Source of the DNA: Eledone cirrhosa
Lineage: Eukaryota
Assembly (NCBI GenBank): GCA_964016885.1
Contig: OZ024745.1
Span: 15,810,001 to 15,874,000 of the forward strand
Direction: 5' to 3'
Length of the DNA: 64,000 bases
The position numbers and the translations under genes are program-made. This document shows positions 1 to 52,717 of this stretch, piece by piece. The notes beneath the pieces were generated by a model. It saw only the letters and a program-made list of their open reading frames with translations, was not told the DNA's origin and did not search any database. The first letter of the stretch is position 1, and each line of letters opens with the position of its first letter.

Positions 1-65
1 TGTGAACTAAATATTATTTGTACAGATTAGCTAGCGTATTGTAGGAATTACAGAGAGACAACATA

Positions 66-670
66 GTGAGGCTCGGCATCCGGATCTGCCAACCACACCA
101 ATGTCGCTGTGGTTCCACCGTGGACTCTTTCGGCCTACACCCGCTTTCCTGTCGCCACAGTGCCGGCCGTATTCCACGCCATGCTGCCCTCAACGAGGTC
201 ATTAAGCTTGGCTTGGACGCTGCAGTCTTCCCTTCCTACCTTGAGCCGGTGGGGCTGGATCGAGGGGACGGCAAAAGGCCAGATGGCATGACCATCTTCC
301 CGTTCCGTGGTGGCAAACCCCTCGTCTGGGATGCCACTTGCACCGACACTTTCTGCAGCCACAACCTGGTGCAGTCTGCGACTGACCCAGGTTCTGCTGC
401 ACGTCGGGCTGAGGGGGTCAAACTCCTCAAATACCGGTCGCTCTCCGACAGGTTTGCGGTCGTACCCCTGGCAGTAGAGACTTCTGGTGTCCTCGATCCC
501 AGGGCTACCTTCTTACTCACCACCATAGGTGCTGAGCTGGCCAGCCGCAGGTGTGATCCCCGCCAGTTGGAATGGCTTTTCTAGCGCGTCTCCCTTGCCG
601 TCCTCCGGGAAAACGCCTTCTCCATTCTGTCCGCCGGGGCTACGGATGGGCCTCATCGCGTACCGTTGTA
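66..670 (+). pseudogene. 3' fragment of a CRE-clade (restriction-like endonuclease) non-LTR retrotransposon
   Basis: C-x-C...H..SC zinc motif, RH..LN and the KRPDG...WDAT RLE motif. In-frame TAG at 582-584, after which the frame continues RVSLAVLRENAFSILSAG. Confidence 0.8.
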
Positions 671-841: not shown

Positions 842-842
<1 letters not shown>

Positions 843-1061
843 TACGATGGACACATGTGCTGAGCTCGCTCGGTAAGTTTCGTTTAAATTTATCTGGAAA
901 TTGTGAACTGTAAACTTTCATTTTCGTACCATTTTGTAGAGGGACTGCCAGGTCAAATTTTGATCTGGTCAGTCTCTCAAAATATTCTACGCCTTTAGGC
1001 GAAATAGTGTTGTAAACATTTTATCTTTCGAAAAATTTCGAAAAATCCTATTTTGAGAAAA

Positions 1062-2928
1062 ATGGCTGAAGCATCTTCACCAACAATCAAAGAAAAAAAA
1101 GGGAAGTCATACTCACAACTTCCCCCTGCCACTGTCACAGCAGCAGATGCCAAAGGCAGAGGTCAGCCAGAGGAAGAATTTTCTTCACCTGTTGACCGAC
1201 AACTTGATGTAGCCACAACTATACAAGAAACTGAAAACAACAACAACAACGACAACAACAGCAACAATAAAGACAACAAAAACAACAACAACACAAACGT
1301 CACATATGTAGTAAACACTTCCTTTCGTAAAGAAAGGGAATGTCACACAACAAAAAATGAAAATAACAGCCCACAACAGACACCAAAAAATACAGAAAAT
1401 GAAAAAATTGAAAACACATCCAACAATACCAATCAAAAAGAAAAAAATGTCAACACAAACACCAAAGAAAATACAAACAACAGTGACAACAACAGCAAAA
1501 TTTATTTTGCTGATACCGTAAAAAAAACGGAAATATTTCAACTTTTGGATTTAACCAACGCGAAACAAAAGTTGGAAGATGCTAAACAATATGTGACTTT
1601 TGGACCCAATGGGTCATTTAGCATAAATTCACCACAAGAACTAAGGAGAGAAAATGCCCTGAACACGGTGGTTTTCAGGACAATCTCAAATGCATAAAAA
1701 AAACCAGCTCAACTATCTCAGAGTGAGAGTGAGCTAGTATTAAGGAACCACATGCATAACATTTTATTTATTCAGAAAGCCAAACCCATTTTACATTTTT
1801 CCCTACATACATGGGAAAAAGAACGCAAAAAATAAAAATTACATGTATAAGACCCAAAGTAGATAGTTGGTGGATACTTTATGGCCTAATTGACCTTGAA
1901 CAAGACACTTTGATCTCAGTAGGAAAATCCTCCAGAGATATATTTAGTGGGACTAGCATCGAAATTCTGGTGCAGATGAGCCCAGAACGTATAATGAAAA
2001 TCCCACAGAGAGTACCTCTGGATGGACAGACCTACATAAACATTTCGGTTGAAAGTAGGCGGTCCGCATGTTACCACTGCGCAAGCAGAGGTCACCTAAG
2101 GGCTGCCTGTCCTCAATTGACAAAAAACCCCCACTTTTACCAACACCACAAATAACAACACAACCACCACCACCACCACCACGACAACAAGAAAAAACAA
2201 CAGAGAACAATATTCCACCCAACTCCTCCCCACCCAAAACAAATACAAAAACACACACAGACACTACAGAACCCCAAAACATACCCCTACCCATCAACAC
2301 GGATGAGGAACCCCTATCGACGGCACCCAGCGGCGACGAGGAAGAACCCTTCCAACCCGAAGAATAAAAAGAAAGAACCGCATGAACAAAAACGAAACAA
2401 ACACACAAACACCAGCACAAACAGCACAAAAATCACAAACAAAAGTTCCCCCTCCCGAAAACAAAATACCCACAACAAAGAGAAAACACGTGCAGGAACC
2501 ACAGACAAAAACAAACACAACACAGGAAAAGTACACATACACTTACATAAACGAAGAAAATAGAACACTGATGGAGACCATCAGAAACAACCCTTTGGTC
2601 AAAACCGAAGGGAACACTTTGGATAGCTCCAACAAAAACAAAAAAATGAACCTAAAACTGATCAGGGTCCCTATAGGAACTTATAGATCCCTAAAAGAAA
2701 CATTTGTAGAGGACGTGGGGAATTCCTGCGTGAAACCAATCAACCGCGTCCTCTACAAAGGCCTCCCCACCACAGGCACCCCACCCAAGTCATCCCCACC
2801 CCACCATACACCCCTTCCCCACCCAACAACCCATCCCCACCCCGCCAGAAACCACCACCCCACCCAACAACCCATCCGCCGCCCTCATGGAAATTGTGCA
2901 GCCCGATACCCGGGACGCAGAGAGGTAA
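1062..2928 (+). pseudogene. Tx1 ORF1 (nucleic-acid binding protein, zinc knuckle), disrupted
   Basis: CYHCASRGHLRAAC; homologous to ORF1 of copies C and E; stop at 1695, deletion near 1780, frameshifts; ends MEIVQPDTRDAER*. Confidence 0.85.
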
Positions 2929-2952
2929 GTGCCTTTTCTCTTCACCACCAAC

Positions 2953-5900
2953 ATGGCTATGCTAAGAGTAGGCTGTTTAAATGCGCGTGGCCTGGGCTCA
3001 ACTTGGAAGCAAGCAATGCTTCTAAATGACCTCAGGTCACAACGTATAGATGTGATGATTATTTGCGAGGCCCGGATCAGCAACGTGCGACAGCTGGCCC
3101 CCACCTTTGATGACTTTGAGATGCACGCATCTCTCTGTCAGCCCGGAGGTGGGGGTGGGGTTGTCGTTCTGCTGCAAAAACATCTGGGTCTCACAACACA
3201 GATGGTACATTTGGACCCGGAGGGTCGACTAGTGGTTCTGGACCTTGGTAGTGGTGAAGGCGGAGCGTTTAGGTTGGTAGCCGCTTACGGCCCTTTCGGG
3301 TCAATGCGGCCGGACTTCTTCCATCGTCTGGAGACTTTTCTAGGGACGTCCCGCTCCTTGCTATTAGTGGGGGACTGGAATGGTATCCTAGATGCACGCT
3401 GGGACTACGTAGGGACCCGTCCCGATAGAGAGGGGTGCAATAGCCTCAAAGGGTTAATCGGTCGATTTGACCTGGCCGATAGATATCGACTAGATTTTCC
3501 GACTGCGCCAACCTGGACTTGGGCAGATCGTAGCGGATCATCTAGGTCGTACCTAGATAGGTTCTTAGTTAGAATTAAGGATAAGGACTTTTTAAGTTGT
3601 CCAAAAATGCGCATGGTTGGCTATTCAGACCACAAGTTAGTGACCTGCATGGTCAACCTTGACAGAACTCATAGACAGGGAGCCGGCTACTGGAAGCTCA
3701 ACTTGTCCTTACCGGCAAGTAAGGCTTACAGGGACCGGATTAGCACTTTAGTTAAGGAGCGGTTGACGGGCGCCATCGTCAACAGCAGGTGGTGGGGATC
3801 TCTCAAAAGAGAGATTAGAGTAGTCTCTATAGAATTTAGTAAGGAGTTAGCCTCTAATAGAAACAGGAAGGAAATGGAGTTGGTAGATAGTGTAGAAGAG
3901 GCAATTAGAAGCGGCGACGTGGCCAGAGTGCTAGCGTCGAGAACGGCCCTGGGCCAGTTCTTCGACGCGAAACACGAAGGCTGCATCGTCCGAAGCAAAA
4001 TACGTGCTCTGGGAAACGAGGGGACCAAAGCTGTAAGCTGGGCCCGCGTGACAGAAGCCAAAAGAGGGATCAGACCCACTATCCGGTCTTTGCGAGACCA
4101 GGATGGACGGGTGATCCTTGAACCTAAGCAGATGTGCGAGGATTTTCAAAAGCACTTTGCCGGATTGTTCGGAAGGGGCGGGGGGGGGGATGTGGACTTC
4201 GGTCCATACCTCGACGGCCTGCCGCGTCTCTCGGACAGGGAGGAGAAGTCCTGCGAGGAGCCGATTTCAGACGCTGAGATAGAGGACGTGCTGAGCCAAT
4301 GCGGCAAACGCAAATCCCCGGGTCTCGATGGTCTTCCATACGAACTATATCTAGCTATGCCGGACTTGTTCCCCGATCTCCTCGAGGCGGTCTACTGCAA
4401 CTGGCAACAGAACGGGAGAATTTCCTGTGCTGTGACCAAGGGCGTAGTCACGCTAGTGAGGAAGGACGAGAACAAGGGGGACGATATAAATAATTTCAGG
4501 CCCATAACTCTGCTAAATACAGAGTTACAGATTTTGGCCAAGGTGCTAGCAAAGAGGTTGGCGCTTGTTGTGGGCAACCTGGTGGAAGATGCGCAGACAT
4601 GTGCTATGCCGTCCAGGTCCATCCACGACAACCTCCACCTCATGCGATACATCATAGAGAGGGTTGGGAATGAACCCGGCTTTGGTGGGGCCCTGATCAA
4701 CTTGGATCAATCTAAGGCATTCGATAGGGTCGACCATGGTTACCAGGATGCGGTGCTAGCGGCGGCAGGCTTCGGACCCGTTTTCAGGGGCTGGATCAAT
4801 GCCATGCACAGCAGCCGCATCTGCTCTAGGGTCAAGGTGAACGGCTACCTCTCGGAGCCGTTCGAAATCGCGCGGTCCATCCGACAGGGGTGCCCTCTCT
4901 CCTCCCTTCTGTAGGTAGTGACTCTAGAGCCACTGCTGTGGAAGTTGGAGTTGTTGCAGGGCATCCTGTTGGAACCGGGATTGCGGAAAGCGGTGTCAGC
5001 CTACGCCGATGACGTAACAGTAATGGTGTCGATGGCCTCGGAAATCGGGGCGATCGGCACCTTACTGGAGAAGTACGATAGGTTTACAGGGGCTAAGCTG
5101 AACCGGGACAAGTCGATCGGTCTGCAACTCGGCACGTGGAGGGGCAGATCGATGCCCTCGGATGGCGTCGTCGGGCGCTGGACGGAGGGCCCGGTGAAGT
5201 TGCTCGGGGTCTGGTTCGGACCAGACCTCCAGGTGGAGAAGAACTGGGGTGAGGTAACGAACAGGGTGTTTGCACTGACCCAGAAGTGGGCCGAGTGCAA
5301 ACTGTCCCTGAAAGGTCGGGCGGAGGTGGCGAACACTTATATAGCGTCCGTCATCTACTACCGCCTGACCGTTGTGCCTTGCCCAAGGGAAACGCTCGCC
5401 AAAATGGAGCGCGCACTCTTCCAATTCCTTTGGAAGAAGCGGGCTCCTATGGTGAGGAGATCCATCTGCTGTCAACACCCTTCGAAAGGAGGGCTGGGGA
5501 TGCCGTGGCTAATGATACGTAAACACGCATTAAGGCTACGGCACCTTCAGGTATTCCTCTCCGGTCAACCGTGACTCGTCTCACTCACTGAGCTGCAATC
5601 CTGGGTCAAGCAAAGACCGAGAAAACTGGGCGCCTGGCACACCGAGTGTGCCCAGGCGCTCACCGCCCTCTGGCAGGCGGACCCGGCTGTCAGTGGAGAA
5701 TCCACCTCGTCATTCTATAGAGGGCTGGTGGTTAGCAGGTGCGACGACGCCCTCGGAGAAGCCCTAGGCATGGAGGAAGACGACCTGGCAAACCTGTTCG
5801 GTAGGACATTCAGCCCGGGACCCATGGATAACTTCCAGAGGTCCCTGGCGTGGCAATGCTACAGAAGGGCTCTGCCCGTCCGAGAAAGGCTCTACAGACA

Positions 5901-6350
5901 CGGGCGCCCGGGTAGGGACCCCTCGAAAAAGATCTGTCCCAGATGCGTGTGCGACGAGGCAACCGTTGCACACGCATTGGTACACTGCTCGGGCATTGCC
6001 GATCTGTGGGGCTATGTCGAACAACTCTGTCAAGGGTGGGACCGATTCGGTTGACCACCGAGTCTATTGTAACAATCAAGCCGCCTCCCCTCTTCAAAAA
6101 CGAAGGAGAGGCGGTGTTTATGTGCGTAATAGCCATGGCGAAAGAGGTTGCATGGTGGACGCGTCTGAAAGGACTGAGGTCAGACACCTTTTTCTCTGGC
6201 CAACAACTGGTCCGTTTCTTCCGATATCATTTCGGAAGAAGGATCAGGATGGAGAGAGAGGTGCTGCACCCCAGCCGTTTTTATGAAAGATGGATGAAAG
6301 TGGCGAGAATGGCCCGTGTGAATGGGCCTTCACTCTACATCAGACTATAG
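2953..6350 (+). pseudogene. Tx1 ORF2 (AP endonuclease + reverse transcriptase), disrupted
   Basis: CLNARGL, GDWN, YLDRF, SDH, WKLN, KSPGLDGL, FRPITLLN, KAFDRV, RQGCPLS, AYADD, GGLG; stop at 4912, deletion near 5572, frameshift near 6030. Confidence 0.93.
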
Positions 6351-6613
6351 GTGAGGAAGATGAAAGACCAAGGGAGCACCCCTACTCTGTGCTCCTGAGG
6401 AAAAGGGTTGCACACTTTTTTTCGGGGGTGTGTGCAACCCCCCAAGGCGCCTCCTCTCTATTGAGGATTTTGTTATAAATTTTATTCTGTTATATTTTAT
6501 TTTATTTTTATATTTTGTTATTGCCTCCTCCTTATTGAGGACGCCTTGTTTTGTAAACTCCCCCCATTGTACTTGTCCCACTTTTGATGCCCTGGTGGCA
6601 AATAAAAGAAACA

Positions 6614-6670
6614 TATCTATCTATCTATCTATCTATCTATATATCTATCTATCTATCTATCTATCTATCT
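6614..6670 (+). repeat. (TATC)n microsatellite, 3' flank of Tx1 copy 1
   Basis: Direct reading. Confidence 0.95.
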
Positions 6671-6905: not shown

Positions 6906-7200
6906 TGCAATGGCCTGGGGTTCAAGGACCCTCAACTCTTCAACAATCTGCCCAGGGATCTAAGAGATCTGTATGGTGTGGACGTGGATGTTTTCAAGAA
7001 ATATCTCGACACCTTGCTATCCAGGATCCCGGATGAGCCCACACCAAGGCACGAGGGAAACCTAAGGGCAGCAACAACGAACTCCATCTTGCACCAGTGG
7101 CCAACCAATACAGGCTGGAGATAAAATATGTAGCAACAAGGGCGGTGCCCCAGCTTGGCCTCAGCCGGTTGGCTGGAACAGGTAAAAGAGTAAAAGAGTA
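6906..7200 (+). mobile_element. 3' fragment of a CR1/L2-group LINE with (GTAAAAGA)n tail
   Basis: Manual translation PQLFNNLPRDLRDLYGVDVDVFKKYLDTLLSRIPDEP...NSILHQ...*, then an 8-bp repeat tail. Confidence 0.7.
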
Positions 7201-13050: not shown

Positions 13051-16000
13051 TTTCTTTATTAGCCACAAGGGCGCAACAAGAAAAGGGGATAATACAAAGA
13101 CATGCTGGGGATTTTACATAGTCGTGTAAAAAATATAAAAACAAACAATTATAACAATCGAAATCCCCAATAGGGAGGAGGCGCCACAAATGGGTTGTTT
13201 AATACCCCGTCGATAGAACAACCCTCAACTCCAGGAGCGTGTTGTGCAAGTGCTCCTTTTTTCCTTTTGCTCTCTTCCTCAACCTACAGGCTTATAAACA
13301 GAGAAGGCCCAATCACTCGGGCCATTTTCGCTTCATTCACCCACTTTTCAGTAAATCTACTGGGGTGCAGTGCCTCTCTTTCCATCCTGATTCTCCTTCT
13401 AAAGTGATACTTAAAGAAGGGAATCAATTGTTGTCCGGAGAGAAAGGCATCTGTCCTCAGCCCTCTCAACCTCGTCTATCATATAACTTCTTTCACCATA
13501 GCCACCGTAAAGAGGAAAACCGCCTCTCTTTCGTTTTTGAAAGAGGCTGGCGGTTTGATCCTTACTATGGACTCGGCAGTCAACTGGATTTGTCCCATAC
13601 GCGACAGTAGTTGTTCTGCATAGTTCCACAGGTCGCTTACGCCCGGGCAGTGTACAATTGCGTGCAGAACTGTTTCAATGTCCTGCGCACATCTTGGACA
13701 CGTCCTCTTGGAAGGATCCCTGCCGGGGCGTCCGTGCCTGTAGATCTTGTCACGAACCGGTAGAGCTCCTCGGTAGCACTGCCAGGCCAGGGACCTCTGG
13801 AAGTTGTCCATAGGTCCCGGGCGGAAAGTCCTACCAAACAGACTGGTGAGCTCATCGTCTTCGACGCCCATTGTCTCTCCGAGCACGTCGTCGCCCTTGT
13901 AACGTACAATCCCTCTATAGAATGTCGAAGTGGAGTCTCCACTGATTGCTGCGCCCGCTTGCCAGAGGACTGTGAGCGCCTGAGCACATTCAATGTGCCA
14001 GGCGCCCATCGTTTTCGGTCTTTTCTTCAACCAGGACTGCAGCTCCGTCAGCGAGACGAGCTGTGGGAAGGCCTGTCTCACAAACGGTGCTCACACCGGT
14101 TGGGGGTCGGTGAGGAATAGCTGGAGATGCCGCAGCCTCAGCGCATGTTTGCGCATCATCAGCCACGGCATTCCTAGCCCTCCGTTGGAAGGGTGCTGAC
14201 AGCAGACTGATCTCCTCACCAGCGGAGCCTGCTTCTTCCACAGAAACTGGAAGAGCATGTGTTCCATCTTGGCGAGGTGTTCACGGGGACAAGGCACGAC
14301 AGTCAAGCGGTAGTAGATGACGGACGCTACGAAAGTGTTCGCCACCTCCGCTCGACCTTTCAGGGACAGTTTGCACTCTGCCCACTTCTGAGTGAGTGCA
14401 AACACCTTGGCCGTAACCTCGTTCCAGTTTTTCTCCACCTGGAGGTCTGGACCGAACCAGACCCCGAGCAATTTCACCGGTCCGTCCGTCCAGCGTCCAA
14501 CGACGCTGTCGGATGTCATCGGTTTGCCTCTCCACGTACCAAGTTGCAAACCGACAGACTTGTCCGGGTTTAGTTTTGCTCCCGTCAGCGTTTCGTATTC
14601 TTTCAGTAAGTTGCCGATCACCCCGATTTCCGAGGTGCTCGACACCATTACCGTCACGTCATCGGCATAAGCCGACGCCGCTTTGCGCAGTCCCGGTTCT
14701 AGAGGGATGCCCTGCAACAGCTCCAACTTCCGCAGTAGTGGCTCTAGAGTCAATACATACAGAATGGAGGAGATAGGTAGCCGTTCACCTTGACCCTCGA
14801 GCAGATGCTGGTGCGCATCGCCTCGATCCATCCTCTGAACACGGGACCGCCTTGAGAACCGCTTCCAAGTATCGATGGTCGACCCTATCGAATGCCTTAG
14901 ACTGATCCAAGTTGATCAGAGCCCCACCGAAGCCGGGTTTACTACCCACCCTCTCTATGATGTATCGCATGAGGTGGAGGTTGTCGTGTATGGACCTGGT
15001 CGGGATTGCACACGTTTGCGCTCTCCCTACCAGGTTCTCGACGACAAGCGCCAACCTCGTCGCTAGCACCTTGGCCAAAATCTTTAACTCTGTGTTGAGC
15101 AGAGTTATGGGCCTGAAGTTGTTAATTTCGTCCCCCTTGTTCTCGTCTTTCCTGATCAGCGTAAACTACGCGCTTGCCTGCAGAACTGGGAATTCTCCCG
15201 TTCTGCTGCCAGTTGCAGTAGACGGCTTCGAGGACGCCAGAGAACAAGTCCGGCATGCCTATGTAAAATTCGTAGGGTAGACCATCTAGACCGGGTGACT
15301 TGCGTTTCCCGCAGCGGCCCAGAGCGTCCCGTATCTCAGTGTCCGTGATCGGTCTTTCGCAGAACTCGGCGTCCGTGTTCGAGAGACGCGGCAGGCCGTC
15401 GAGGTATGAACTAAAGTCCATTGCCCCGTTCGGCTCACCGTCGTTCTGCTCAAACAGTCGCGCAAAGTGCCGTGAAAGGCCGCGGACATTTGCTTGGGGT
15501 CAAGTAGCACGCGTCCGTTTTGGTCTTTCTTGTTGCCACTTTTTGCCACTGCCACTTGGGCCCAGCTGACAGCTTTCGCTCCTTCGTTTCCTAGAGCACG
15601 TGTTTTGCTTCTGACCACGCAGCCTTCGTGTTTCGCATCGAAGAACTGGTCCAGTGCCGTTCTCGACGCTAACACTCTAGCCGCGTTGCCACTTCTAAGT
15701 GCCTTCTCTACCTTGGCTACTAGTTCTCTTTCTATTCTGTTTTTCTCTAAGGCTAACTCTCTGCTATACCCTATCGATTCTATTCTAATTGCTTTCTTGA
15801 GAGAGTACCACCATCTATTGTTGACGATGGCTCCCGTTAACTGTTGCTTGACAAGTCTACTTATCCGTTCACTGTAAGCTTTACGTGCCGGCAACGACAC
15901 GTTCAGCTTCCAGTATCCGGGACCCTGTCTATGTATTCTATCACGGTTGACTAAGCAGACGACTAACTTGTGATCTGAATAGGCAACCATGTGCATTCGT

Positions 16001-17876
16001 GGACAGCTTAATATCTCCTTGTCCCTTTCTCTAATGAAGAACCTATCTAAATACGATCTAGATGTCCCACTGCGGTTTGCCCACGTCCACTGTGGTGCAG
16101 TAGGGAAATCCAGTCGATACCTATCGGCCAGCTGGAATTGGCCCATTAAAGTTTTGAGGCTGTTGCACCCCGCTCTACTGGGACAATCTCCTACATAGTC
16201 CCATCGTGCATCTAGGGTACCATTCCAGTCCCCCACTAAAAGTAAGGAGCGAGACGTTCCCAGAAAAGACTCTAGACGCTTAAAGAAGTCTGGCCGTGAT
16301 TGCGATTGCCCGGTCGGGGCATAAACGGCCACCAGTCTGAAGGCTCCACCTCCGATACTGTTCACGTCTAGGAATACCAGTCTACCCTCCGGGTCCAAGT
16401 GTACTTGCTGTACTCCGACGTCCAGGTTCTTCCGAAACATGACAGCCACTCCACCTCCACCTCCAGGCTGACAGAGAGATGCGTAGATCTCAAAGTCGTC
16501 GAAGATGGGGGTTAGTTGCTGCCTGTTGTGGATCCTGGACTCGGTGATGGCTATCACATCCATACTGTGTGACCTAAGGTCGTTTAAAAGTTGGCCCTGT
16601 TTCCAGGGCATCCCTAGGCCACGCACATTCACGGTTCCAACTCGTAAACTAGCCATGTTGGTGAAGAAAAGTTGGAGAAAATGGACGAAAGGTGGACTTA
16701 CCTTTTCGTTTCCTGGAGATCGGGTTGTTCAATCTCCATTTGGGTGCTAGATGGGGTGTTGGGTGGGGTGGGTAAACATTTTAACAGGACGCGGTTGATG
16801 GGTTTGTGACAGGGGTTGCCCACGTCCTGTGAAAATTTAATTTTTAGGTCTTTATAGGTTTCCATAGAAACCCTTATAAGTTTAAGGTGTGGAGACGATT
16901 CTGCCTTGACGAAAGTTTTGCCCTCCGTCTCCACCTTGGGGTTTTGGGAAATGATCTCCATCAAACTCTTGTTGTTTGTGTTGATGAATGCGTATTGTTG
17001 TTTGTGTTTTTGTTGTGTTGTTTTAGTTTGTTGTTCGTCCGAGAGTTTTCTTTTTATGGTGGGTGGTTGTGTTTGGGGTGGTGTTGGTGCTGGTTTTGCT
17101 GATAGGGGGATGTTTGACTGTGGTGTTGTTTGTGTTGTTGTTTGTATCTGTGGTTGTGTGTTGGTGTTTGTGATTGGAGTTTTGTGGGTTTTGTGGTGTC
17201 TCTTTTTTTTGTTTTTTAGATTTCCGTGGTTCTCCCTCTTCTTCACTTAAAGAAGGAGAAGCAGCTTCATCCGTCGATGAATAATCATCGTCAGGTGTGT
17301 GGGGTAAGGGTATGTTGTGTGGTGGTGGTGTTTCGGTATGTGTGTTTGTGGTAGTGTTTGATGGAGTGGGATGGAGTGGGGATGTGTTCTTCAGGGGTGT
17401 TGTCTCTGTTTTTTCTGTTGTTGTTGGTTGAGTGTCTGTTTGTTTTGGTGTGGTTGCTCGTTTCGTCTGTCGTTGTACTTGTGGTGGTGGTGGTTGTTTT
17501 GGTGTTGGTGTTGGTGTTGGTAATAGCGTTTTTTTTATGATGTTGTTGTTGTGTGTTTGTGGACAAGAGGCTTTTAGGTGAGCTGTGCTACCACAGCGAA
17601 GCAATAAAATTTTCGTCCTTCTACCGAAATGTTTATTTTGTTGTTATTATCAATAACGACTCTTTCGGATATTTTGGAGATTCTCTCCGGTTTCATTTGC
17701 AACAGAATCTCCAAATCTGTGCTCGCCCACCTTTGTCGAATAGATTTTCGTATTGAAAGTATCATATCTGCTTCTGGCTCTACGAAGCCAGCCAAGATCC
17801 ACCAGATGTTAATGTTTGGAGGTATGTTTTTTATTTTTATTTTTTGTGTCCTTTTCCCCATGTATGTAGGGAAAAA
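13051..17876 (-). mobile_element. Tx1 copy C, 5'-truncated within ORF1
   Basis: ORF1 remnant 16698-17876 with zinc knuckle; ORF2 13284-16656 with frameshifts and deletions; GATA flanks. Confidence 0.92.
13284..16656 (-). pseudogene. Tx1 ORF2 (APE-RT) of copy C
   Basis: MASLRVGTVNVRGL, GDWN, SDH, KSPGLDGL, AYADD; ends GPSLFISL*. Confidence 0.92.
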
Positions 17877-17904: not shown

Positions 17905-19952
17905 TGTTTCTTTATTAGCCACAGGGGCACAAAAGAAGGGGACAAATACAAAGGGAGAAGTTTACATACAATAAAAACGTGTAAAATGTTATCACAAATG
18001 CAATTTAAAAAATTAGTCGATTTTCCCCAATAGGGGGAGACAGTTCATATGGGTAACACATACCCCCGAAAAAATGTGCAACCCTCATCTCCAGGAGTAC
18101 GAAGCGTTTGTACTCCTTTCCTCTCCTTTTCCTTTTCCTCAACCTACAGGCTGATATAGAGAGAAGGCCCATTCACTCGGGCCATTCTCGCCACTTTCAC
18201 CCACCTTTCATAAAACTTGCTGGGGTACAGCACTTCTCTCCCCATCCTGATTCTTCTTCCAAAGTGGTATTTGAAAAAAAGAATCAGATGTTGGCCGGAG
18301 AGAAAGGTGTCTGACCTCAGCCCTTTCAACCTTGTCCACCATACAACCTCTTTCGCCATAGCTATCACACAAAGGAAAACCGCCTCTCCTTCGTTTTTGA
18401 AGGAGGGTGGCGGTTTGATCATGATAATGGACTCGGTGGTCAACCGGATTGGTCCCACCCGCGACAATAGTCGTTCTACATAGCCCCACAGGTCAGTGAC
18501 GCCCGGGCAGTGTATGAATGCGTGCGCGACGGTTTCTTCGTTACGCACGCATCTCGGACAGATCTTTTTTGCAGGGTCCCTGCCTGGGCGCCCATGTCTG
18601 TAGAGCTTGTCTCGAACTGGTAGAGCTCCTCGGTAGCACTGCCAGGCCAGGGACTTTTGGAAGTTGTCCATCGGTCCCGGGCGGAAGGGCCTACCGAACA
18701 TACTGGCTATTTCATTTTCCTCTACGCCTAGAGTTTCACCGAGCGCGTCGTCGCACTTGCTGCGGATCAACCCTCTATAGAATAACGAAGTGGAGTCTCC
18801 ACTGATCGCCGGGTCCGCCTGCCAGAGGGCTGTGAGCGCCTGAACACATTCGATGTGCCAGTCGCCCATTTTCCTAGTCTTTGCTTGACCCATGACTGCA
18901 GCTCGGTCAGCGAGACGAGTCGTGGGAAGGCTCACCTCACGAACGGGGCCCACACCGGTTGTCCGGTGAGGAATACGTAGAGATGCCGCAGCCTGAGCGC
19001 GTGTTTGCGCATCGTCAACCACGGCATCCCCAGCTCTCTGTTAGAAGGGTGTTGGCAGCAGATGGATCTTCTCACCAAAGGAGCCCGCCTCTTCCAAAGG
19101 AATTGGAAGCGCGCGCGCTCCATTTTGGCGAGCGTTTTGGCTGGACAAGGCACGACGGTCAAGCGGTAGTAGATGGCGGACGCTATAAAAGTGTTCGCCA
19201 CCTCCGCTCGACCTTTCAAGGATAGTTTGCACTCGGCCCACTTCTGGGTGAGTGCAAACACCTTGGCCGTCACTTCGTTCCAGTTTTTCTCCACCTGGAG
19301 GTCCGGACCAAACCAGACCCCGAACAGCTTTACCGGTCCTTCCGTCCAGCGTCCGACGACGCCATCGGAAGGCATTGGTTTGCCTCTCCACAATCCGAGT
19401 TGCAAACCGATGGACTTGTCCCGGTTCAGCTTCGCTCCTGTGAAACTTTCGTATTCCTTCAGTAAGGTGCCGACATCCTCGATTTGCGAGGCGCTCGACA
19501 CCATTACCGTTACGTCATCGGCGTAGGCCGACGCCTCTTTCCGCAGTCCCGGTTCCAGAGGGATGCCCTGCAATAGCTCCAACTTCCGCAGTAGTGGCTC
19601 GAGAGTTAGTACGCACAGAAGGGAGGAGAGAGGGTATCCCTGTCGAATGGATCTCGTAATATGGAACGGCTCCGAGAGGTAGCCGTTCACCTTGACCCTT
19701 GAGCAGATGTTGCTGTTGTGCATTGCAGCAATCCAGCCCTGAACACTGGTCCGAAGCCTGCCGCCTCGAGCACCGCATCCAGGTAACGATGGTCAACCCT
19801 ATCGAAAGCCTTAGACTGATCCAAGTTGATCAGGGCCCCACCGAAGCCGGGTTTACACCCTACCCTCTCTATGATGTATCGCATGAAGTGGAGGTTGTCG
19901 TGTATGGACCTGGTCGGGATTGCGCATGTCTGCGCTTCTCCCACCAGGTTTC
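17905..19952 (-). mobile_element. Tx1 copy D, 5'-truncated within RT
   Basis: From NLVGEAQTCAIP through AYADD to GPSLYISL* (18144), plus a distinct 3' UTR. Confidence 0.9.
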
Positions 19953-20061: not shown

Positions 20062-20293
20062 AATTTCTATTTATTTGCCACGAGGGCACAAAAGAAGGGG
20101 ACATTTACACAGTGGGGGAGTTTACATAAATCGAGTAAAGAAAAAAGGAATAACAATAATAATATAACAATAAAAAGTCCTCAAAAGGGAGGGGGCGTGT
20201 TGGGGATTGCACATACCCCCGAAAAGTGTGCAACTCTTTTCGCGGGGGAAGCCCAGAGAGGAGGCGCTCCCCCTTTCCTCTTCACTTCTTCAC

Positions 20294-23200
20294 CTACAGA
20301 ACAATGTAGAGAGAAGGCCCATTTACACGGGCCATTCTCGCTTCTTTCACCCACCTTTCATAAAACTGTCTGGGACCAAGCACTTCTCTCTCCATCCTGA
20401 TTCTTCTTCCGAAGTGGTATCGGAAGAAGTAAACCAGGTGATGGCCGGAGAGAAAGTCACCCGACCTCAGACCTTTCAAGCGCGTCCACCACACAACCTC
20501 TTTCATCATGGCTATTACGCACAGAAAGACCGCCTCTGCTTCATTTCTGAAGGGAGGAGGCGGCTTGATGTTCACCACAGACTCGGCGGTTAATCGAATC
20601 GGCGCCACACGCGACAGCAGTCGTTCAACGTAGCCCCACAGATCGGCAATGCCCGGGCAGTGTACCAGTGCATGCGCAACGGTTTCCTCGTCGCGCACGC
20701 ATCTGGGACAGATCTTTTTCGCGGGATCCCTGCCCGGGCGCCCGTGTCTGTAGAGCTTTTCTCGAACGGGCAGAGCCCCCCGGTAACACTGCCAGGCTAG
20801 GGACCTCTGGAAGTTGTCCATGGGTCCCGGGCCGAAAGTTCTACCGAACAGGCTGGCCAGTTCGTCCTCCTCCATGCCTAGCGACTCTCCAAGGGTGTCG
20901 TCGCCCCTGCTAGCCACCAACCCTCTATAGAATGTCGAGGTGGATTCTCCACTGACAGTCGGGTCCGCTTGCCAGATAGCCGTGAGCGCCTGGGCACACT
21001 CGGTGTGCCAGTTGCCCAGTTTTCTCGGTCTTTGCTTCACCCAGGATTGCAGTTCGGTGAGCGAGACGAGCTGTGGGAAGGCTCGCCTCACAAACGGGGC
21101 CCACACCGGCTGACCGTTGAGGAATACCTGTAGATGCCGTAGCCTCAATGCGTGCCTACGCATCAACAGCCACGGCATACCCAGCCCTCCTTTCGAAGGG
21201 TGCTGGCAGCAGATGGATCTCCTCACCATGGGAGGCCGCTTCTTCCAGAGGAACTGGAAGAGCATGCGTTCCATGATGGTGAGCTTTTCCTTGGGGCAAG
21301 GCACGACGGTCAGGCGGTAGTAGATGACGGACGCTATGTAAGCGTTCGTCACCTCCGCCCGACCTTTCAGTGATAGTTTGCACTTGGCCCACTTCTGGGT
21401 CAGCGCAAACACCCTGCTCGTCACCTCGCCCCAATTCTTCTCCACCTGGAGGTCCGGTCCGAACCAGACCCCGAGCAGCTTCACCGGGCCCTCCGTCCAC
21501 CGCCCGACGACACCGTCTAACGGCATCGGTTTGCCCCTCCACGTTCCGAGTTGCAAACCGACTGACTTGTCCTGGTTCAGCTTAGCCCCCGTCAGCCTTT
21601 CGTATTCCTCCAGTAGGGTGGCGATCGCCCCGATTTCCGAGGCGTCCGCCACCATTACTGTTACGTCGTCGGCATAGGCCGAGACCGCTTTGTGCAATCC
21701 CGGTTCCAGGGGTATGCCCCGCAGCAACTCCAACTTCCGCAGCAGTGGCTCGAGAGTCAATACGTACAGAAGGGAGGAGAGGGGGCACCCCTGTCTGATG
21801 GATCGGGTGATTTGAAACGGCTCCGAGAGGTAGCCGTTTACTTTAATCCTAGAGTAGATGTTGCCACTGTGCATGGCAGAAATCCAGCCCCTGAAAACGG
21901 GTCCGAAGCCCGCCGCCGCTAGCACCGCATCCAGGTAACCATGGTCGACCCTATCGAACGCCTTAGATTGATCCAAGTTGATCAGGGCCCCACCAAAGCC
22001 GGGTTCGTAGCCAACCCTCTCTATGATGTATCGCATGAGGTGGAGGTTGTCGTGAATGGACCTGGACGGGATAGCGCATGTCTGCGCGTCTCCCACCAAA
22101 CCACCCACCACAAGCGCCAACCTCTTCGCCAACACCTTGGCCAAAATCTGTAACTCTGCATTCAGCAGAGTTATGGGCCTAAAGTTACTTAAGTCGTCCC
22201 CCTTGCTCTCGTCCTTCCTCACTAGCGTGACCACGCCCTTGGTCACAGAACAGGGAATTCTCCCGTTCTGTTGCCAGTTGCAATAGACAGCCTCGAGGAG
22301 TTCGGAGAACAAGACCGGCATAGCTAAATAAAGTTCGTATGGTAGACCATCGAGACCCGGGGATTTGCGTCTGCTGCATTGGCTGAGCGCTTCCCCGATT
22401 TCAGTGGCTGTGATTGGCCTTTCGCAGCACTCCGCTTCGCCGCTCGAAAGACGCGGTAGACCGTCGAGGTATGGACCGAAGTCCACATCCCCGTCCGGCC
22501 CCCCGCCACCTCCGAACAGTCGAGCAAAGTGCCTTTGAAAGGTCTCGCACATTCGCTCAGGTTCAAGGATCACCCGTCCATCCTGGTCTCGCAAAGACCG
22601 AATGGTGGATTTAATCCCACTCTTGGCTTCTGTCACGCGGGCCCAGCTAACAGCTTTGGTCCCCTCGTTTCCTAAAGCACGTATTTTACTTCGGACAACG
22701 CAGCCTTCGTGCTTCGCGTCAAAGAACTGGCTCAATGCCGTTCTCGTCGCTAACACTCTGGCTACGTCTCCGCTCCTAATCGCCTCTTCTAGTTTATCTG
22801 TTAACTCCCTTTACTTCCTATTTCTATTCGCCGCTAGTTCCTTACTGTAACCTATCGAACTTACTCTAATCTCTCTCTTTAGAGATACCCACCACCTACT
22901 GTTGACGATCGCTCCCGTCAACCGCATCTTAACTAAGCTACTAATCCGGTTTCTGTAATCTTTCTTTGTCGGTAAGGACAAGTTCATCTTCCAGTAACCG
23001 GGACCCTGTCTATACGTTCTATCAAGGTTGACCACGCAGGTCACTAATTTGTGATCTGAATAGCCAACCATGATCAGTTCTGGACAACTAAATACATCCC
23101 TATCCTTACTCCTAACCAAAAACCTATCTAGGTACGATCTAGATTGTCCACTGCGGTTTGCCCAGGTCCAGGTTGGCGCAGTTGGACAATCTAGTCGAAA

Positions 23201-23721
23201 TCTATCGACCAGGTCGAATCGATCGAGTAACCCCTTGAGTCTGCTACACCCCCCTCTATCGGGACATGCCCCTGCATAGTCCCAACGCGCATCTAGGATT
23301 CCATTCCAGTCCCCCACTAAAAGCAGGGAACGCGACGTTCCTAGAAAAGTCTCCAGACGCTGGAAGAAGTCGGCTCTTTCCGCCCCGAAGGGAGCATAAA
23401 GACCGACCAGTCTGAAAGCCCCGCCTTCACCGCCTCCGACGTCCAGCACCAGTAATCGACCCCCCGGGTCCGAGTGAACAATCTGTACGTCGGGAGTCAG
23501 ACGTTTATCCAGCAGTACGGCAACTCCCCCCCGCCTCCGGGTTGACAGAGAGATGCGTGCATCTCAAAGTCATCGAAGGCGGGCGCCAGCTGTCTCACGC
23601 TGCTGATCCGACTCTCGCAAACAACCATCACATCTATACTTTGTGACCTGAGGTCACTTAGAAGCTTTGCTTGCTTCCAAGCTGAGCCCAGGCCACGCGC
23701 GTTCAAACAGCCAACTCTCAA
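20294..23721 (-). pseudogene. Tx1 ORF2 (APE-RT) of copy E, two frameshifts
   Basis: ORF track pieces 23497-23721, 22811-23449 and 20294-22756 are colinear with copy 1 ORF2. Confidence 0.92.
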
Positions 23722-23726
23722 TTGAT

Positions 23727-25569
23727 CTATTTTGGTGTTGAAAGTGAAGAAAGAAAAGCACTTACCTCTCCGGGTTGCGTAATTTCCATGGCATCAGGTG
23801 TGTTGGGTGGAGGGATGTTTTGTGGTGGTGTGGGGGTACACGTGTGTGGTGGGGTTGGGGTATTTGGAGTTGTGTCAGGGAGAGGGGCGGTTATGGGGAA
23901 ATCTTTCAAGAGGACGCGATTCAACGGTTTTAAACAGGGGGGGGGCTCACGTCCCGTCTAAATTGTTCTTTTAAGGAACGATAAAGGTCCAGAGGGACCT
24001 TTATCATTTTTAAATGGGTGAAGTTCTCTGTTGAGATAAAGTTTGGCCCTTCGGTCTGCACCATAGGGTTATTGTTTATTAATTTAACCAGTTTTTTGTT
24101 TTCTTTATTTATATATGTGTATTGCAACGTCTTTTTTTGTGATGCTGTCAATGTTTCGGAGAGGGGAGGCGCAGATTTATTTTTGTTTGTTGAGGGTGGG
24201 GTGTTTTTGATTGGAGTTGGTGTTTGTGTGTGGGTTATTTGTGGTGTGCTGGGTGTGTGTTTTCTTTTTTTTCTTTTAACTTGTCTGAAGGCTTCTCCTC
24301 CTTCTTCTTCAGAAGTTGGGGGAAACTCTTCAGCGCTAGGTGGGAGGGACGTGTTGTGTGGTTGTTTTTTTTTTGCGGGAGGGGTAGATTTGTTACTGTT
24401 TTTTTTTTATTATTTGTTTGGAATGGGTTTTGTGGTGGTGGTGGTAATGTTTGTGTCGTGCTTGTGGTTGGTGATGGTGGTGGTGATGTTTGTGTTGTGG
24501 TTGGTGGTGGTGATTTTTGTGTCGTGCTTGTGTTTGGTGCTGGTGGTGGTGATGTTTGTGTTGTGTTTGTGGTTGGTGGTGTCTGTATTTTGTTTGCTGT
24601 GTGTGGTATTAGTGTATTTTTGGAGGTGGGTGGTGTTGGTGTACTGTTTGTGGTGGGTGTGGGCAATAGTCCTTTTTGGGGGATACGTTTCGGGCAGTTA
24701 GCCTTAACGTGTCCCCTTTCCATGCATAAATAGCATGCTGGTCTTCTCCCCTCTACAATTATGTCTATTGGGGTAAGGTCATCCAGCCAGATGCGATCCG
24801 GGATTTGTGCTATTCTTTCGGGCCTCATTTGGACTAGTATGTCGAGGCCCATTCCCAGGAACGCATCTCCAGTTGCCTTCCCCATTGACAGCATTGTGTC
24901 TTCGCCCATATCAATGAAGCCAGCAATAGCCCACCAGAAGTCCATTGTGGGCAGCATTGTTTTTACTTTTACTCTCTGTGTTCTTCTACCCATGTAGGAG
25001 GGATAGAAGCTATATGTTGTCGATGAGAGTGGGCTTAGGGAAAGCTTCTCCGCCGTTTCTTTGTCTCTTGTTAGGACCGAAATGCTGCCATAGAGTCGGT
25101 CCTTTCGTATGAAGAGAATATTCTTCATATAGTCTTTTAGGACTAACTCTATTTCCATTTGGCTGGGCTGTGCTGGCTTTCTTGTCTGGTTCAGTATAGT
25201 TCTGTAGAGAACTGTGTTTTCTGCTCTGGCTTTCTTGAATTCTGGGGGGGGGGGGGAGTTAATGGAAAACATTCCGTTCTCCCCCAAAACAATGTGTTTC
25301 TTTGCTTCGGCCAGTTTTTCTCTGGCGGCAGTTAGGTCAATTGGTGTGTATGTAATGGATTGTTTTGTTTTCTGGGCGAAAGTTGCCCTGTCGTTATTTG
25401 TATTATTTTCTGTTTGTTTGTTTTCTGTTTGCTCATTTTCCTTAACATTTGTTTTTTCATTTTCTTTGTTTGTTTCAATGTCTAATTTTGTTGTAATTAT
25501 TTTTTGTTCTTCAGACTTGGGGGGCGTGGCAGAGCTAATGGCAGACATGTCTGCCATCTTTTCCGCCAT
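23727..25569 (-). pseudogene. Tx1 ORF1 of copy E
   Basis: MAEKMAD...YPSYMGRRTQ...CCHC knuckle, P/T-rich linker, NRVLLK motif shared with copies 1 and C. Confidence 0.87.
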
Positions 25570-25770
25570 GCTGCCAAGAAAGAAATTTTTCGGCAAAAAT
25601 AGATATTTATTTTACCCCCTAAAAAGGGGGTAAATGCAAAAATGTTTCCCTAAATAACAGGGGTTAGTGTTCCAAATGTGTTGCACTGAAAAATTTATCC
25701 GGTACTTACAATAGTAAGGGTAAATCCCGATGGAATAGCGGAGCCGATGTGAAGCGTGTCTTACTCTATC

Positions 25771-48753: not shown

Positions 48754-48886
48754 ATATATATATAAACAACTATCTGGTTGTGGAACCAACCAACCAACCA
48801 GAAATTTATAAATTTGTAAATTTATAAATATATAATAAATTAAATTGAAGTGAAAGCAACTGGTGCGTGTGTTTCTTATTGGCAAC

Positions 48887-51800
48887 ATGACCCTCCCAAA
48901 GTATAACAATATCGGTTTCAACACACGATTTCAGATAAAGAATCTTGCTAAACAAATTCAGAAACGAAATATCGTAAGCCTTAGCCAGGCTAACAAGATA
49001 CTGAAAACCACCATGTTCTGTTGTCTACGAAAAACCATAACATCTCGACAACTACGCTTCATAAAACTGTGCACCACTTCTAGAATCTACACCAACACCA
49101 TCAATACCGACGTTAGAAGATTACAACTCACCAAAAAACAAGCAGATAGGCTAAAACGAACTTTAATTCTAAACATAAAAAAGAAGATCTATAGAGAATT
49201 AAGTCATCAAGAAAAACTAAAGCGTAACCTAATACAAGAAATATTTAAAATCACCACACCAGCAGAAAAACTAACATTTATAAGCCTTATACGCCCCGAA
49301 GAACAGTACATTACTCAAGAATGTAATAAGCACTTTAACAGAAAATTAAAGTGGCTTAAACAGGCAAAGCTAAATCGGGATACTATAGAGTATACCAATA
49401 GATATCCTGACAAAATTGACGGTATCAACATGGCCGACACCTCATTATCTGAAGAGTTCAACAATGAAAATACCAACATTTATGGAAACACGGAAATAGA
49501 TAATAATGAAATGTCTGTGTTACGTCTGCCACCCAAATTTGCAACATTCAAGAAGGTAAATATGATTAGTTGTCTGTCAGAAATAGAAAAATCATTTACG
49601 AAACTACGCTAGAGCATCAAAAACAAAAACAAAAGCAACAATATACGCACACACATATACAACACACATCCCAACAACAACAGACACACAGACACAAACA
49701 ACAATAACAACAACAATAGCAACATACCCAGATACAACAACAACAATAGCAACATACCCAGATACAACAGACACGCAGACACAAACAACAATAACAACAC
49801 ACACGGAGACAACAATAACAACAACACACACATCAACAACAACAACAATAGCAACATACCCAGATACAACAACAACAGACACGCAAACACAAACAACAAT
49901 AACAACACACACAACAACGATAACACACACACACACGGAGACAACAACAACACACATCAACAACAACACACATCAACAACAACAACACACACGCATTCAA
50001 TGCCTCTCACCACCACCACAATCTTAACAAACACACAAACACAGAAAACAAGTAATGACAATGACAGTAGCACAGAAATCAGAGAAATAAGAGAAAGTAA
50101 TAGTAATAGGATTAAAAGGAAAAGGAGATGGGAGACTAAGGACAAAGAGAATAACCAAGACGAACACACAGACACACAAAATAGGGTAGATAACAACATT
50201 GAGCCAGTGGAAAGAGACAGGAGTAATTATGAGAGACATAGAAACAACCATGAAGCTGAGGCTGCTGCTGTTGGTGGAAATAGAAACAACACAACCAACA
50301 ATAACAATAGCACTAGTACACATAAAGCAGCAGCCTGGAACTCTCCGTTTTATAACCCCTCCGATAAATCATTCGACCTACGACGAGTCCACGCCACGAC
50401 TTTGCCATTTAACAAACGCACGCAGTTGCCGTCGCAGGTCGATGAACAAACAGAAGCACAATTTAGTATAGCTAAATCCGAACTTAGAAATATTATAGAA
50501 CAGTATAGCAAGAAGCATAATAGAATAGAGGCCCAGCAACTGGGAGAAGAATCTGCAAATGGCTTGCGTAAGCTCATGCAGCGCTCGCGTAATGGAGAGA
50601 TAGCATGCTTTCCAACAGACAAGTCTGGCAGAATGTCGGTTGACAGCCTGCCAAACTACATCCAGGCAATGCAACCCCACATCACTAACACAAGAGAGGT
50701 AACACCACAGGAGCATGAGGATAGAGAAAAAACCCTCAATGCCCATATGGTGATGTGGACAAATATAATGCAGCCCAACAAAAGGACTGCCAACAACTTC
50801 CAGGCCTGGAACAATTACGTGCCGGCGTTGTATGGGCTTCGAAAAGACCATAAAACGGGCTGGGACCCTGTCGCGGGACCACCAACACGGCCAGTCTGTG
50901 GGGCTAACATTGCTAGTAACTACAGACTGTCCTACTTCCTCTCCCTGATCATACGCCCCATCATTGAGATGTCCCCAGATGTGTGCGACAGCACGGAGGA
51001 CCTCCTCAGCAGAATCGGCGCGGGTAACCGATCTGGGGACCTAACAAACTGCATAATAGGCAGTATGGATGTTGTGTCCCTGTATCCATCTATTGACGTG
51101 GATTTTGCTGTGGAGAAATGCGTCGAAATGATCAGCGAGAGCAAGGTTGAGTTCCGTGGGATTGATACCAGTGAGCTGGGACTTCTACTTAAGCTTACCC
51201 ATAATAATAGTTACCTAGACACTTATGACCTTAGCAACCTGTGCCCTACAAGACCAGCAAGAGGCAGACCACCTACCATTACCTCAATGGCCAAGAAAAC
51301 CCACACAGATAGATGGAACGGGTGGACCAGAGCCATACGGACACCCGAAAACCACGATGAACTGAAGAAAATGATTGCACATGCGGTAGGGGCCAGCATA
51401 AAATTAACCCTTAAGGAACATATGTTCAAATTTAATGGTAAAACATATGCCCAAGAGGAAGGAGCAGCCATTGGTGTTAGCATTGCAGGCGACATAGCTA
51501 ACTTATTCATGGTATGGTGGGACAGTAGACTTAAACAAAAACTTAATGAACAATTAGAAGACAGCTTAACCCTGATAATGTACTCCCGCTACGTAGATGA
51601 TATAAACATCGTAGTTAAGACACCCCCACTAAAGAACAGTCAGGAACTAGAGAAAAACACAATGGAAAGCATCCAGCAAATAGCAAACTCCATCCACCAG
51701 AGCATTAGAGTTACTATAGACTACCCAAGTAGACACCCCAACCATCGATTACCTGTACTAGAGACAGAGCTCTGGTTAGATACAATTAACAACCAAAAAC

Positions 51801-52717
51801 AAATCCTCCATTCCCATTATGCCAAACCCATGACTTCCAAACATCTGATCCACCGAAACTCGGCCATTTCGGACCATACCAAAATCAACATACTGATTGC
51901 GGATTTGGTACGGGTGATGAGAAATGTGTCCCGCATGTGCAACCCCGAAGAACTAGAGAGACACATACAACACTTCATCCACCGTATGCAGTTCTCTGGC
52001 TACAATCAGAGAGATAGAATCAGAGTGTATAAAGGAGCCAGAACCAAATGGGAAAAAATGGTAAATAATGACATAAATGGGACCTGCCCTTGTATAGGAG
52101 CAAATTTTGGAATAGAATAGAAAGAACTAAGAACAAGGCCAATAGAATAAACTCATGGTATGATAGCAATAAATACCAGAGTGTAATGTTCATCAATACA
52201 ACCCCTAGAGGCGAACTAGCCTACAAATTTAGAAGGGCCCTAAAGAAACATAATCTCAATATTAAGATAGTAGAAAGACCTGGTACCTCCGTAAAAACAC
52301 TTATTAGCAAGACACCCGTTCCAAAGACCCTCATGTATAGATAAGAAATGTATAACCTGTAAAATAAGCCCCCATATTAACTGTAAAACTAGAAATGTAG
52401 TATATAGCATAAGATGTACTGAAGGACAATGTAGAAACAAAAATATAGTGTACATAGGTGAGACAGCTCGTAGTATAGGGGAACGAATAAATGAACACTG
52501 GCGAGACCTCCAAGATAATAAAGAATCATCTGTGCTCTACCAACATGCTAAGATAGAACACAGGGGTAAATTAGAGAGCATAGAAATAAAAATAGAATCC
52601 ACACACAAGAAAGACGCAATGTTTAGGCAAATTACAGAGGCAGTAAGCATAAAAGAATTAAAACCAAAATTAAATAGAAAATATGAGTGGAACAGCAACA
52701 TCACAACTTACAATTAA
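48887..52717 (+). pseudogene. Penelope-like RT + GIY-YIG ORF: one stop (49610), two frameshifts (~52090, ~52315)
   Basis: LPPKF, TDKSG, LRKDHK, RPVCG, SMDVVSLYPSI, QEEGAAIG, RYVDD; Cys-rich linker; VVYSIRC...YIGETARS..ERINEH. Confidence 0.92.

Follow-up and report, generated by a model that had tools for sequence, protein, structure and literature searches.

Long interspersed nuclear elements (LINEs) are usually seen as intronless RNAs that are harmed by splice sites, and the question raised by the locus described here is why a group of them should keep a splice donor at the end of its first gene. The locus is a stretch of 64,000 nucleotides (nt) from Eledone cirrhosa (assembly GCA_964016885.1, contig OZ024745.1, positions 15,810,001 to 15,874,000 of the forward strand; the window, below), which contains four copies (1, C, D, and E) of a LINE with a pair of open reading frames (ORF1, ORF2), flanked by (TATC)n tracts. 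The original prediction held that the whole of ORF2 is a facultative intron, spliced from a donor AG|GTAAGT close to the ORF1 stop to the AG of the ORF2 stop codon in TAG|GT. Both motifs are present as described (table 1), the first at the junctions of copies 1, C, and E and the second at all four ORF2 ends, and the donor does differ in phase between copies, holding the ORF1 TAA in phase 2 in copies 1 and C and being read through in phase 0 in copy E. Copy D has no junction, an internal deletion with breakpoints away from the splice sites having removed it. The comparisons below argue that the donor is under real constraint, beyond chance and ancestry; the feature is real and its mechanism is unproven.

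As a word, AGGTAAGT has an ordinary count in the window (four occurrences where 2.68 would be expected, with four reached in 27 of 100 shuffles), but it is not ordinary that three of the four fall at the three ORF1/ORF2 junctions. The three copies are not independent, as they are homologous and their families share 165 of 317 four-fold degenerate sites. Copies 1, C, and E represent three amplified families, with top genome matches that are 90–100%, 98%, and 99% identical, respectively. Conservation of the donor at the nucleotide level, regardless of codon phase, extends well past them. Further families (G, its sisters G', F1/F2, H, K, Q, and E2) came from protein look-ups and variant searches rather than a census, and in every amplified family examined the end of ORF1 bears a donor-like motif (GTAAGT, GTGAGT, or GTAGGT). 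The motif is in phase 2 in three families (1, C, and H), in phase 0 in E, and in phase 1 in G, and in F1 it lies just past the stop. Across six families with a four-fold divergence of 20–49%, 80 of 272 four-fold sites are invariant, which gives five or six free invariant letters a probability of about 0.002–0.0007; in the ORF2 bodies, GTRAGT occurs five times in 27,534 nt. The only tolerated changes are A to G at +3 or +4. Single decayed copies with a broken motif exist, some of them fetched precisely for being variant.

The same position is occupied in a distant lineage (41% identity), in which AAG|GTAAGT follows the ORF1 stop at a distance of one base in 37 of 37 intact copies. All 37 have a second donor at the ORF2 stop or 14 nt past it, which, coming after ORF2, cannot serve its removal. 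Several 5' untranslated regions (UTRs) of this lineage (L208–L248) hold a donor-like motif in a near-perfect hairpin, with a shared acceptor-like site ~200 nt later, and most subfamilies have an acceptor-like site in the 3' UTR. The lineage was found in contigs of a bacterial metagenome-assembled genome (L207–L249; GTDB genome labeled Arenicella) that contain many tandem LINEs of animal type, and these are likely host contamination. Lineage N (L207, 40% identity) and L245 (28% identity) have no junction donor; in L207, ORF1 and ORF2 overlap stop to start and a strong donor lies 40 nt past the ORF2 stop (L207:3837-3885 and 6920-6935). A metagenome scan returned four loci at 24–38% identity, among which the sole near-complete element has no GTRAGT, and a viral scan for related elements gave no match.

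A 3' splice site at the ORF2 stop, in contrast, is not conserved to the donor's degree. In family F, ORF2 frames are open and the donor is kept, and yet 29 of 30 loci end ORF2 in TAA, with a G-type end in the remaining one; TAG is also missing from 5 of the 37 distant-lineage copies, so that the expected conservation of this stop holds only in part. By an ad hoc score of our own, which ranks the AG at the ORF2 end among ~250 AGs, it comes first in family E, third to fourth in C and H, eighth in G, and 15th to 19th in family 1, whereas in family F the AG|GT that lies 7 nt after the TAA ranks 47th of 254. Window copies 1, C, and D and families 1, C, and H have a further AG 7 nt upstream of the TAG. 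The pyrimidine run before the stop, cited as an acceptor signal, is present, but the same letters encode G-P-S-L-Y-I; its G-P-S/T-L motif is present too in four homologous proteins. Spliced in silico, families 1, E, and G reach a stop in no more than three codons, copy 1 ending in R and copy E in VKK as foreseen, and 19–50 residues are added in C, H, K, and Q; in copy C, where the motif is also in place, the product gains a 28-residue tail instead of an immediate stop.

The letters at the ORF2 end have a second partner. The 70 nt that follow the donor are predicted to pair with the end of ORF2 and the start of the 3' UTR, at -33 to -58 kcal/mol, in a long-range duplex that we call the clasp. 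In 7 of 11 full-length rows, the element's own partner beats all ~170 other windows of the same element, and in a deleted copy it beats all 44 (8 of 12 rows together); in all rows, the duplex is better than 189–200 of 200 shuffles. For 13 representatives, with rows and columns corrected for, the own pairs score above 100,000 of 100,000 permutations, and for seven lineages they rank 7 of 5,040, values that overstate independence because related families share ancestry. In the predicted structures, the G of the TAG and the G that follows pair with CC 5' of the ORF2 start, and the next letter changes together with its partner (TAG|GT with ACC, TAG|GC with GCC in family G). Family F has about seven extra letters on both arms, and in C, F, and K the 3' UTR holds a complement of the donor that tracks its +3 letter (C and F versus K). 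The predicted helix spans both the start codon and the stop of ORF2 in 13 of 13 representatives and takes in three to six of the six donor letters. An Rfam search of four loci matched no family. The pyrimidine run and TAG|G are better explained by the codons, the stop, and this predicted co-varying duplex; rather than a splice signal, the acceptor-like letters would be one of its arms.

The original prediction also foresaw ORF1-only genomic copies, with the ORF1 end fused to the 3' UTR. A genome-wide search with exact exon ends of 16–18 letters found 0 such copies beside 2,991 unspliced junctions (1,475 in family 1, 343 in G, 379 in E, and 794 in C), a total that is inflated by tandem duplicates and a search that diverged spliced families would escape. 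The 13 junction variants of family 1 (seven "GT-not-A" and six "not-G") are point changes, small indels, or sister families, none of the 20 variants of family C is spliced, and families G and E gave 0 variants. All 72 matched ORF1 ends of the distant lineage likewise run into the donor (overlapping loci may repeat a place). It should be noted that an RNA without ORF2 would need ORF2 in trans, given cis preference (PMC5860796; this and the other papers cited are represented by excerpts), so that the missing copies are weak evidence. Internal deletions in D, L134, and L135 were considered as splice products and rejected, their breakpoints lying away from the predicted sites. A short intron fusing ORF1 to ORF2 is not general either, since in F1 and in the distant lineage the donor comes only after the ORF1 stop; the other families were judged by eye only.

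Contigs of runs of unrecorded kind were also compared, and these reveal neither RNA ends nor RNA levels. For copy 1, none of the 15 joints listed, out of 304 in four runs, falls at the predicted junction. For family G, 15 joints were listed from run X4 (seven more were dropped at repeats), and neither the donor nor the ORF2 stop has one; X4 contigs, which are no evidence on RNA, run unbroken across the family G donor (from 44 letters upstream) and stop (64 upstream), and one contig crosses a family-1-like donor. Over L123:4249-5405, the 3' half of the family G ORF1, X4 contigs have a depth of ~190 against ~21 on either side. The 3' break of this step matches a 30-mer shared with a sister family in 6 of 20 loci, and no chimeric copy that would explain it was found among the 20 loci examined; we draw no inference from it.

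A donor-like motif is present in the 5' UTR as well, in five of the six families examined. Beside 319 intact sites in family G (with three point variants) and 461 in family E, no copy spliced from this motif was found, in a search that covered acceptor exons not starting with G. Because an RNA spliced here could keep ORF2, the missing copies are a stronger test than for an RNA without ORF2, and the group thus keeps donor motifs without a sign of splicing. Extra family E 5' UTRs without a junction match were candidates for ORF1-only copies; the 20 examined are mostly full-length variants, and none is ORF1-only.

The account that we lean to, tentatively and short of calling it probable, is that the donor docks the U1 small nuclear ribonucleoprotein on an intronless RNA and that the clasp masks the donor once the transcript is complete. 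Its starting point is the conserved donor at the ORF1 end, in most families joined by a second in the 5' UTR. The letters of the motif, which we take to be the U1-binding consensus, and the restriction of tolerated changes to those two positions would be consistent with U1 binding. ORF1 is A-rich (36–42% A) and has two to five poly(A) hexamers between the two donors, and docked U1 may shield it and aid elongation through ORF2. The predicted duplex between the spacer and the ORF2 end and 3' UTR, co-varying between families, would then hide the acceptor-like site in the finished transcript and, for several families, the donor as well. By analogy, masking would let full-length RNA alone proceed to 3'-end formation and export, and a short RNA with an exposed donor would be retained; occasional splicing that reaches the ORF2 stop would be incidental and limited by the clasp. 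The predicted geometry of the clasp pairs the start of the intron with the downstream exon and buries the AG, which would hinder rather than help splicing. We favor docking over cutting because the second donor of the distant lineage sits past the ORF2 stop and because the 5' UTR donors leave no spliced copies. There are precedents: in foamy virus, U1 at a donor keeps poly(A) sites suppressed and RNA structure blocks it (PMC3694450), in EVD U1 inhibits premature termination (PMC5580714), and unused 5' splice motifs hold RNA in the nucleus (PMC6199362), according to the excerpts of these papers.

Several observations weigh against this account. U1 binding and its effects in this organism would follow by analogy with those systems. 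The donor is confined, in every lineage, to the interval from 3 nt before to 37 nt after the ORF1 stop; splicing there would leave ORF1 whole, and docking alone needs no such position. ORF2 has only zero to two poly(A) hexamers, so that the junction donor has little to protect downstream, and family F1 has no GTRAGT in its 5' UTR. As for the mask, all six donor letters are paired in only 4 of 13 representatives, and the duplex is weakest in family 1, where its row rank is 12 of 13 and 26–31 of ~172 windows score better. The distant lineage has no significant duplex (70 and 105 of 164 windows are as good), and the shared ancestry behind the permutation values counts here too. Unconstrained folds of 3.8-kb RNAs contain the duplex in one of five cases and lack it in four; forcing it costs 0–7.4 kcal/mol in three folds, at most 0.5% of the energy.

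That confinement is what would be expected if ORF2 were indeed a facultative intron, removed from the donor to the AG of its stop to give an ORF1-only messenger, with the clasp as a brake that spares part of the RNA; we consider this possible but, on balance, unlikely. A perfect donor is so placed, in a tight link to the ORF1 stop, that ORF1 stays whole, the ORF2-end acceptors of E, C, and H are good (AG ranks 1–4), the spliced frame ends promptly in families 1, E, and G, and even family F retains its AG|GT past the TAA. EVD and copia offer a precedent (PMC5580714), and the need for mobilization in trans lightens the weight of the absent genomic copies (PMC5860796). Those absences nevertheless count against it, both at the junctions searched and at the ORF1 ends of the distant lineage, as do the low rank of family F's AG, the tails added in C, H, K, and Q, the further AG upstream in families 1, C, and H, the sufficiency of stop, codons, and pairing to explain the acceptor letters, and the X4 contigs that pass unbroken through both family G sites.

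The donor is kept in family F and the distant lineage, where the ORF2-end acceptor is not, and it might instead be spliced to another acceptor, inside ORF2, farther along the 3' UTR, in a host gene, or in the tandem copy that follows, and the message would again hold ORF1 alone. Tandem copies are common, and a single downstream acceptor could serve both donors of the distant lineage, for which the 3' UTR site of most of its subfamilies is a candidate. We nevertheless think it improbable, as 0 of the 13 junction variants of family 1 are joined to other sequence, family G has no variant in which the exon is followed by G and not T, and no alternative acceptor is shared across families among the top three of each.

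The spanning of ORF2 start and stop by the predicted helix in every representative could also mean that the clasp itself is what functions, bringing the start of ORF2 beside its stop and the 3' UTR for reinitiation or for handing the ORF2 protein over to its own RNA end, the donor being an ancestral by-product. Family E keeps the pairing even though it has no ORF2 ATG. As the sole explanation this too seems improbable, leaving unexplained the donor of the distant lineage, which has no significant clasp, the 5' UTR donors, and the limitation of donor changes to A to G at +3 and +4; a function of the clasp in ORF2 translation is compatible with U1 docking as a second role. In family E, ATA replaces the ORF2 ATG (window 23727-23730, - strand; L063–L087 and L281–L300; 24 of 24 loci viewed, out of 25) and overlaps the ORF1 TAG in the -1 frame, and ORF2 is nonetheless open for 1161–1168 codons in 5 of 20 copies, which suggests ATG-independent initiation of ORF2, as is known for human L1. 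Finally, chance and shared ancestry, by which a stop codon and its neighbors merely resemble splice sites, would suffice for the acceptor and could point to the half of four-fold sites shared by the three window families and to the lack of a junction donor in lineage N and L245, but are largely refuted for the donor, kept over six diverged families, four registers, and 41% protein identity where GTRAGT is otherwise rare, and are therefore a highly improbable explanation.

The component parts of the proposed mechanism are already known from retroviruses, copia elements, and L1. Drosophila copia makes a Gag-only RNA, and HAL1 (half-L1) elements are ORF1-only and nonautonomous, the kind of product that had been predicted, unlike the situation here, where no such copy was found at the predicted junction. 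EVD resembles our elements in that a U1 site is conserved where the structural gene ends; there, U1 permits a short RNA and also keeps the full-length one from terminating prematurely. It differs in being a long terminal repeat (LTR) element with a polyprotein, a short intron, and early termination, and in that its splicing has been shown, whereas here splicing is only predicted (PMC5580714, in excerpt). At the foamy virus major splice donor, U1 suppresses a poly(A) site without splicing and structure masks the donor where its action must be prevented, but this is a retroviral LTR with a local structure, in contrast to a predicted mask from 3.4 kb downstream (PMC3694450, in excerpt). Human L1 and its spliced integrated retrotransposed elements (SpIREs) share old conserved splice sites that are mostly unused, as well as cis preference; there, however, the sites lie in the 5' UTR and ORF1 and spliced copies make up ~2% of full-length events, whereas none was found at the sites tested here (PMC5860796). 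L1 is otherwise described as not requiring splicing (PMC10901741, excerpt). Tx1-clade elements with microsatellite targets include Kibi and Koshi (PMC4494074), and L1-Tx1 families are reported in Octopus vulgaris (PMC13282606); these have the same two ORFs, endonuclease, reverse transcriptase, and zinc-binding end and one microsatellite flanking the copies, and the excerpts of both papers do not mention a donor at the ORF1 end, present here, or a duplex between spacer and 3' UTR, predicted here. In the literature searched, with subscription papers and Repbase reports outside its scope, no LINE turned out to be described with a conserved donor at the ORF1 end or with such a duplex. New here are the family with TAA stops, the count over the whole genome, the 5' UTR donors that are apparently unused, and the second, post-ORF2 donor of the distant lineage.

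The coordinates of the window features are collected in table 1.

Table 1. Features of the LINE copies in the window (window coordinates).
Feature	Position	Strand	Remarks
Copy 1 (family 1)	842..6614	+	Decayed but full-length LINE of L1/Tx1 type, with a (TATC)n tract on each side; Pfam Exo_endo_phos and RVT_1
5' UTR donor-like motif TCG|GTAAGT, copy 1	873..878	+	32 nt from element start
ORF1, copy 1 (broken here)	1062..2928	+	A-rich, three AATAAA; stop TAA 2926-2928
Predicted clasp 5' arm, copy 1	2922..2960	+	Donor, pyrimidine spacer, ORF2 ATG at 2953; weakest duplex in family 1
Junction donor AG|GTAAGT, copy 1	2925..2930	+	Phase 2
ORF2, copy 1 (broken here)	2953..6350	+	Apurinic-type (APE) endonuclease, reverse transcriptase, zinc-binding end; stop TAG 6348-6350
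Predicted clasp 3' arm, copy 1	6339..6392	+	ORF2 end, TAG|GT, purine-rich 3' UTR start
AATAAA poly(A) signal, copy 1	6601..6606	+	Directly 5' of (TATC)n tail
Copy C ORF2 stop and predicted 3' arm	13240..13295	-	Stop 13284; 8-nt donor complement at 13246-13253
Copy C junction and predicted 5' arm	16648..16704	-	Donor at 16701 (phase 2), spacer, ORF2 ATG (16656)
Copy D ORF2 stop and predicted 3' arm	18090..18155	-	Stop 18144
Copy E ORF2 stop and predicted 3' arm	20245..20305	-	Stop 20294
Copy E junction and predicted 5' arm	23718..23768	-	Donor 23765 (phase 0), spacer, ORF1 TAG overlapping ATA at the place of the ORF2 ATG
5' UTR donor-like motif ATT|GTAAGT, copy E	25704..25709	-	Sequence motif

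By their architecture, these elements appear to be non-LTR retrotransposons of the L1/Tx1 group, the Tx1 label being drawn from architecture, target habit, and recall rather than from a reverse transcriptase tree. Family G has an intact ORF2 of 1139 amino acids and an intact ORF1 of 620–636; its ORF2 matches Pfam Exo_endo_phos, RVT_1, and zf-RVT, that is, an APE endonuclease, a reverse transcriptase, and a C-terminal zinc-binding domain, and the best solved relative is L1 ORF2p (E = 6e-57). The ORF1 of families G and E has no Pfam match; atlas look-alikes of ORF1 are CCHC proteins (score 0.90–0.93), and the ORF1 of the distant lineage contains zf-CCHC. Homologous proteins found by look-up are 40–72% identical, and the nearest named ones are from Argonauta hians (64–66% identity). 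The full-length copies viewed, a sample and not a genome-wide count, have (TATC)n or (ATT)n at both ends, indicating a microsatellite target.

Copies C and D start at one and the same point inside a C-type ORF1 (window 17876 and 20033, - strand), directly after the (TATC)n tail of the preceding copy, and copy D then skips to the reverse transcriptase through a 2.8-kb deletion; a nested insertion plus duplication is the likely origin of this arrangement. Elsewhere, ten family G junctions form a tandem array with a spacing of ~5.84 kb (G000 C1:423365592-423418122), and L137, L146, L282, and L133 are chimeric, with the 5' part from one family and the 3' part from another. One or two hairpin-like inverted repeats were seen by eye 5' of the ORF1 ATG in all families viewed (window 940-1060 and 25570-25700; 5' UTRs of L122–L135). 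The window further contains, at 45-584 (+), the 3' fragment of another retroelement, whose peptide resembles what we presume to be a restriction-like endonuclease domain, and, at 48854-52120 (+), long A-rich ORFs with a weak reverse transcriptase match (E = 2e-4, under the Pfam cut-off), probably an unrelated retroelement.

Near-identical intact copies of these elements number in the hundreds. Donors kept at ORF ends across 41% protein identity, together with a co-varying duplex of 3.4-kb range, can be read as purposeful use of the host spliceosome by a LINE. If docking is what the donor does, it would amount to a U1-based check that releases only full-length RNA. If ORF2 is an intron, its 3.4 kb would be removed by a retrovirus-like switch that sets the ratio of ORF1 to ORF2, a long-standing question for LINEs, and the clasp formed by the finished 3' UTR would lock both splice sites and so keep a set fraction of the RNA full-length for ORF2 translation and retrotransposition.

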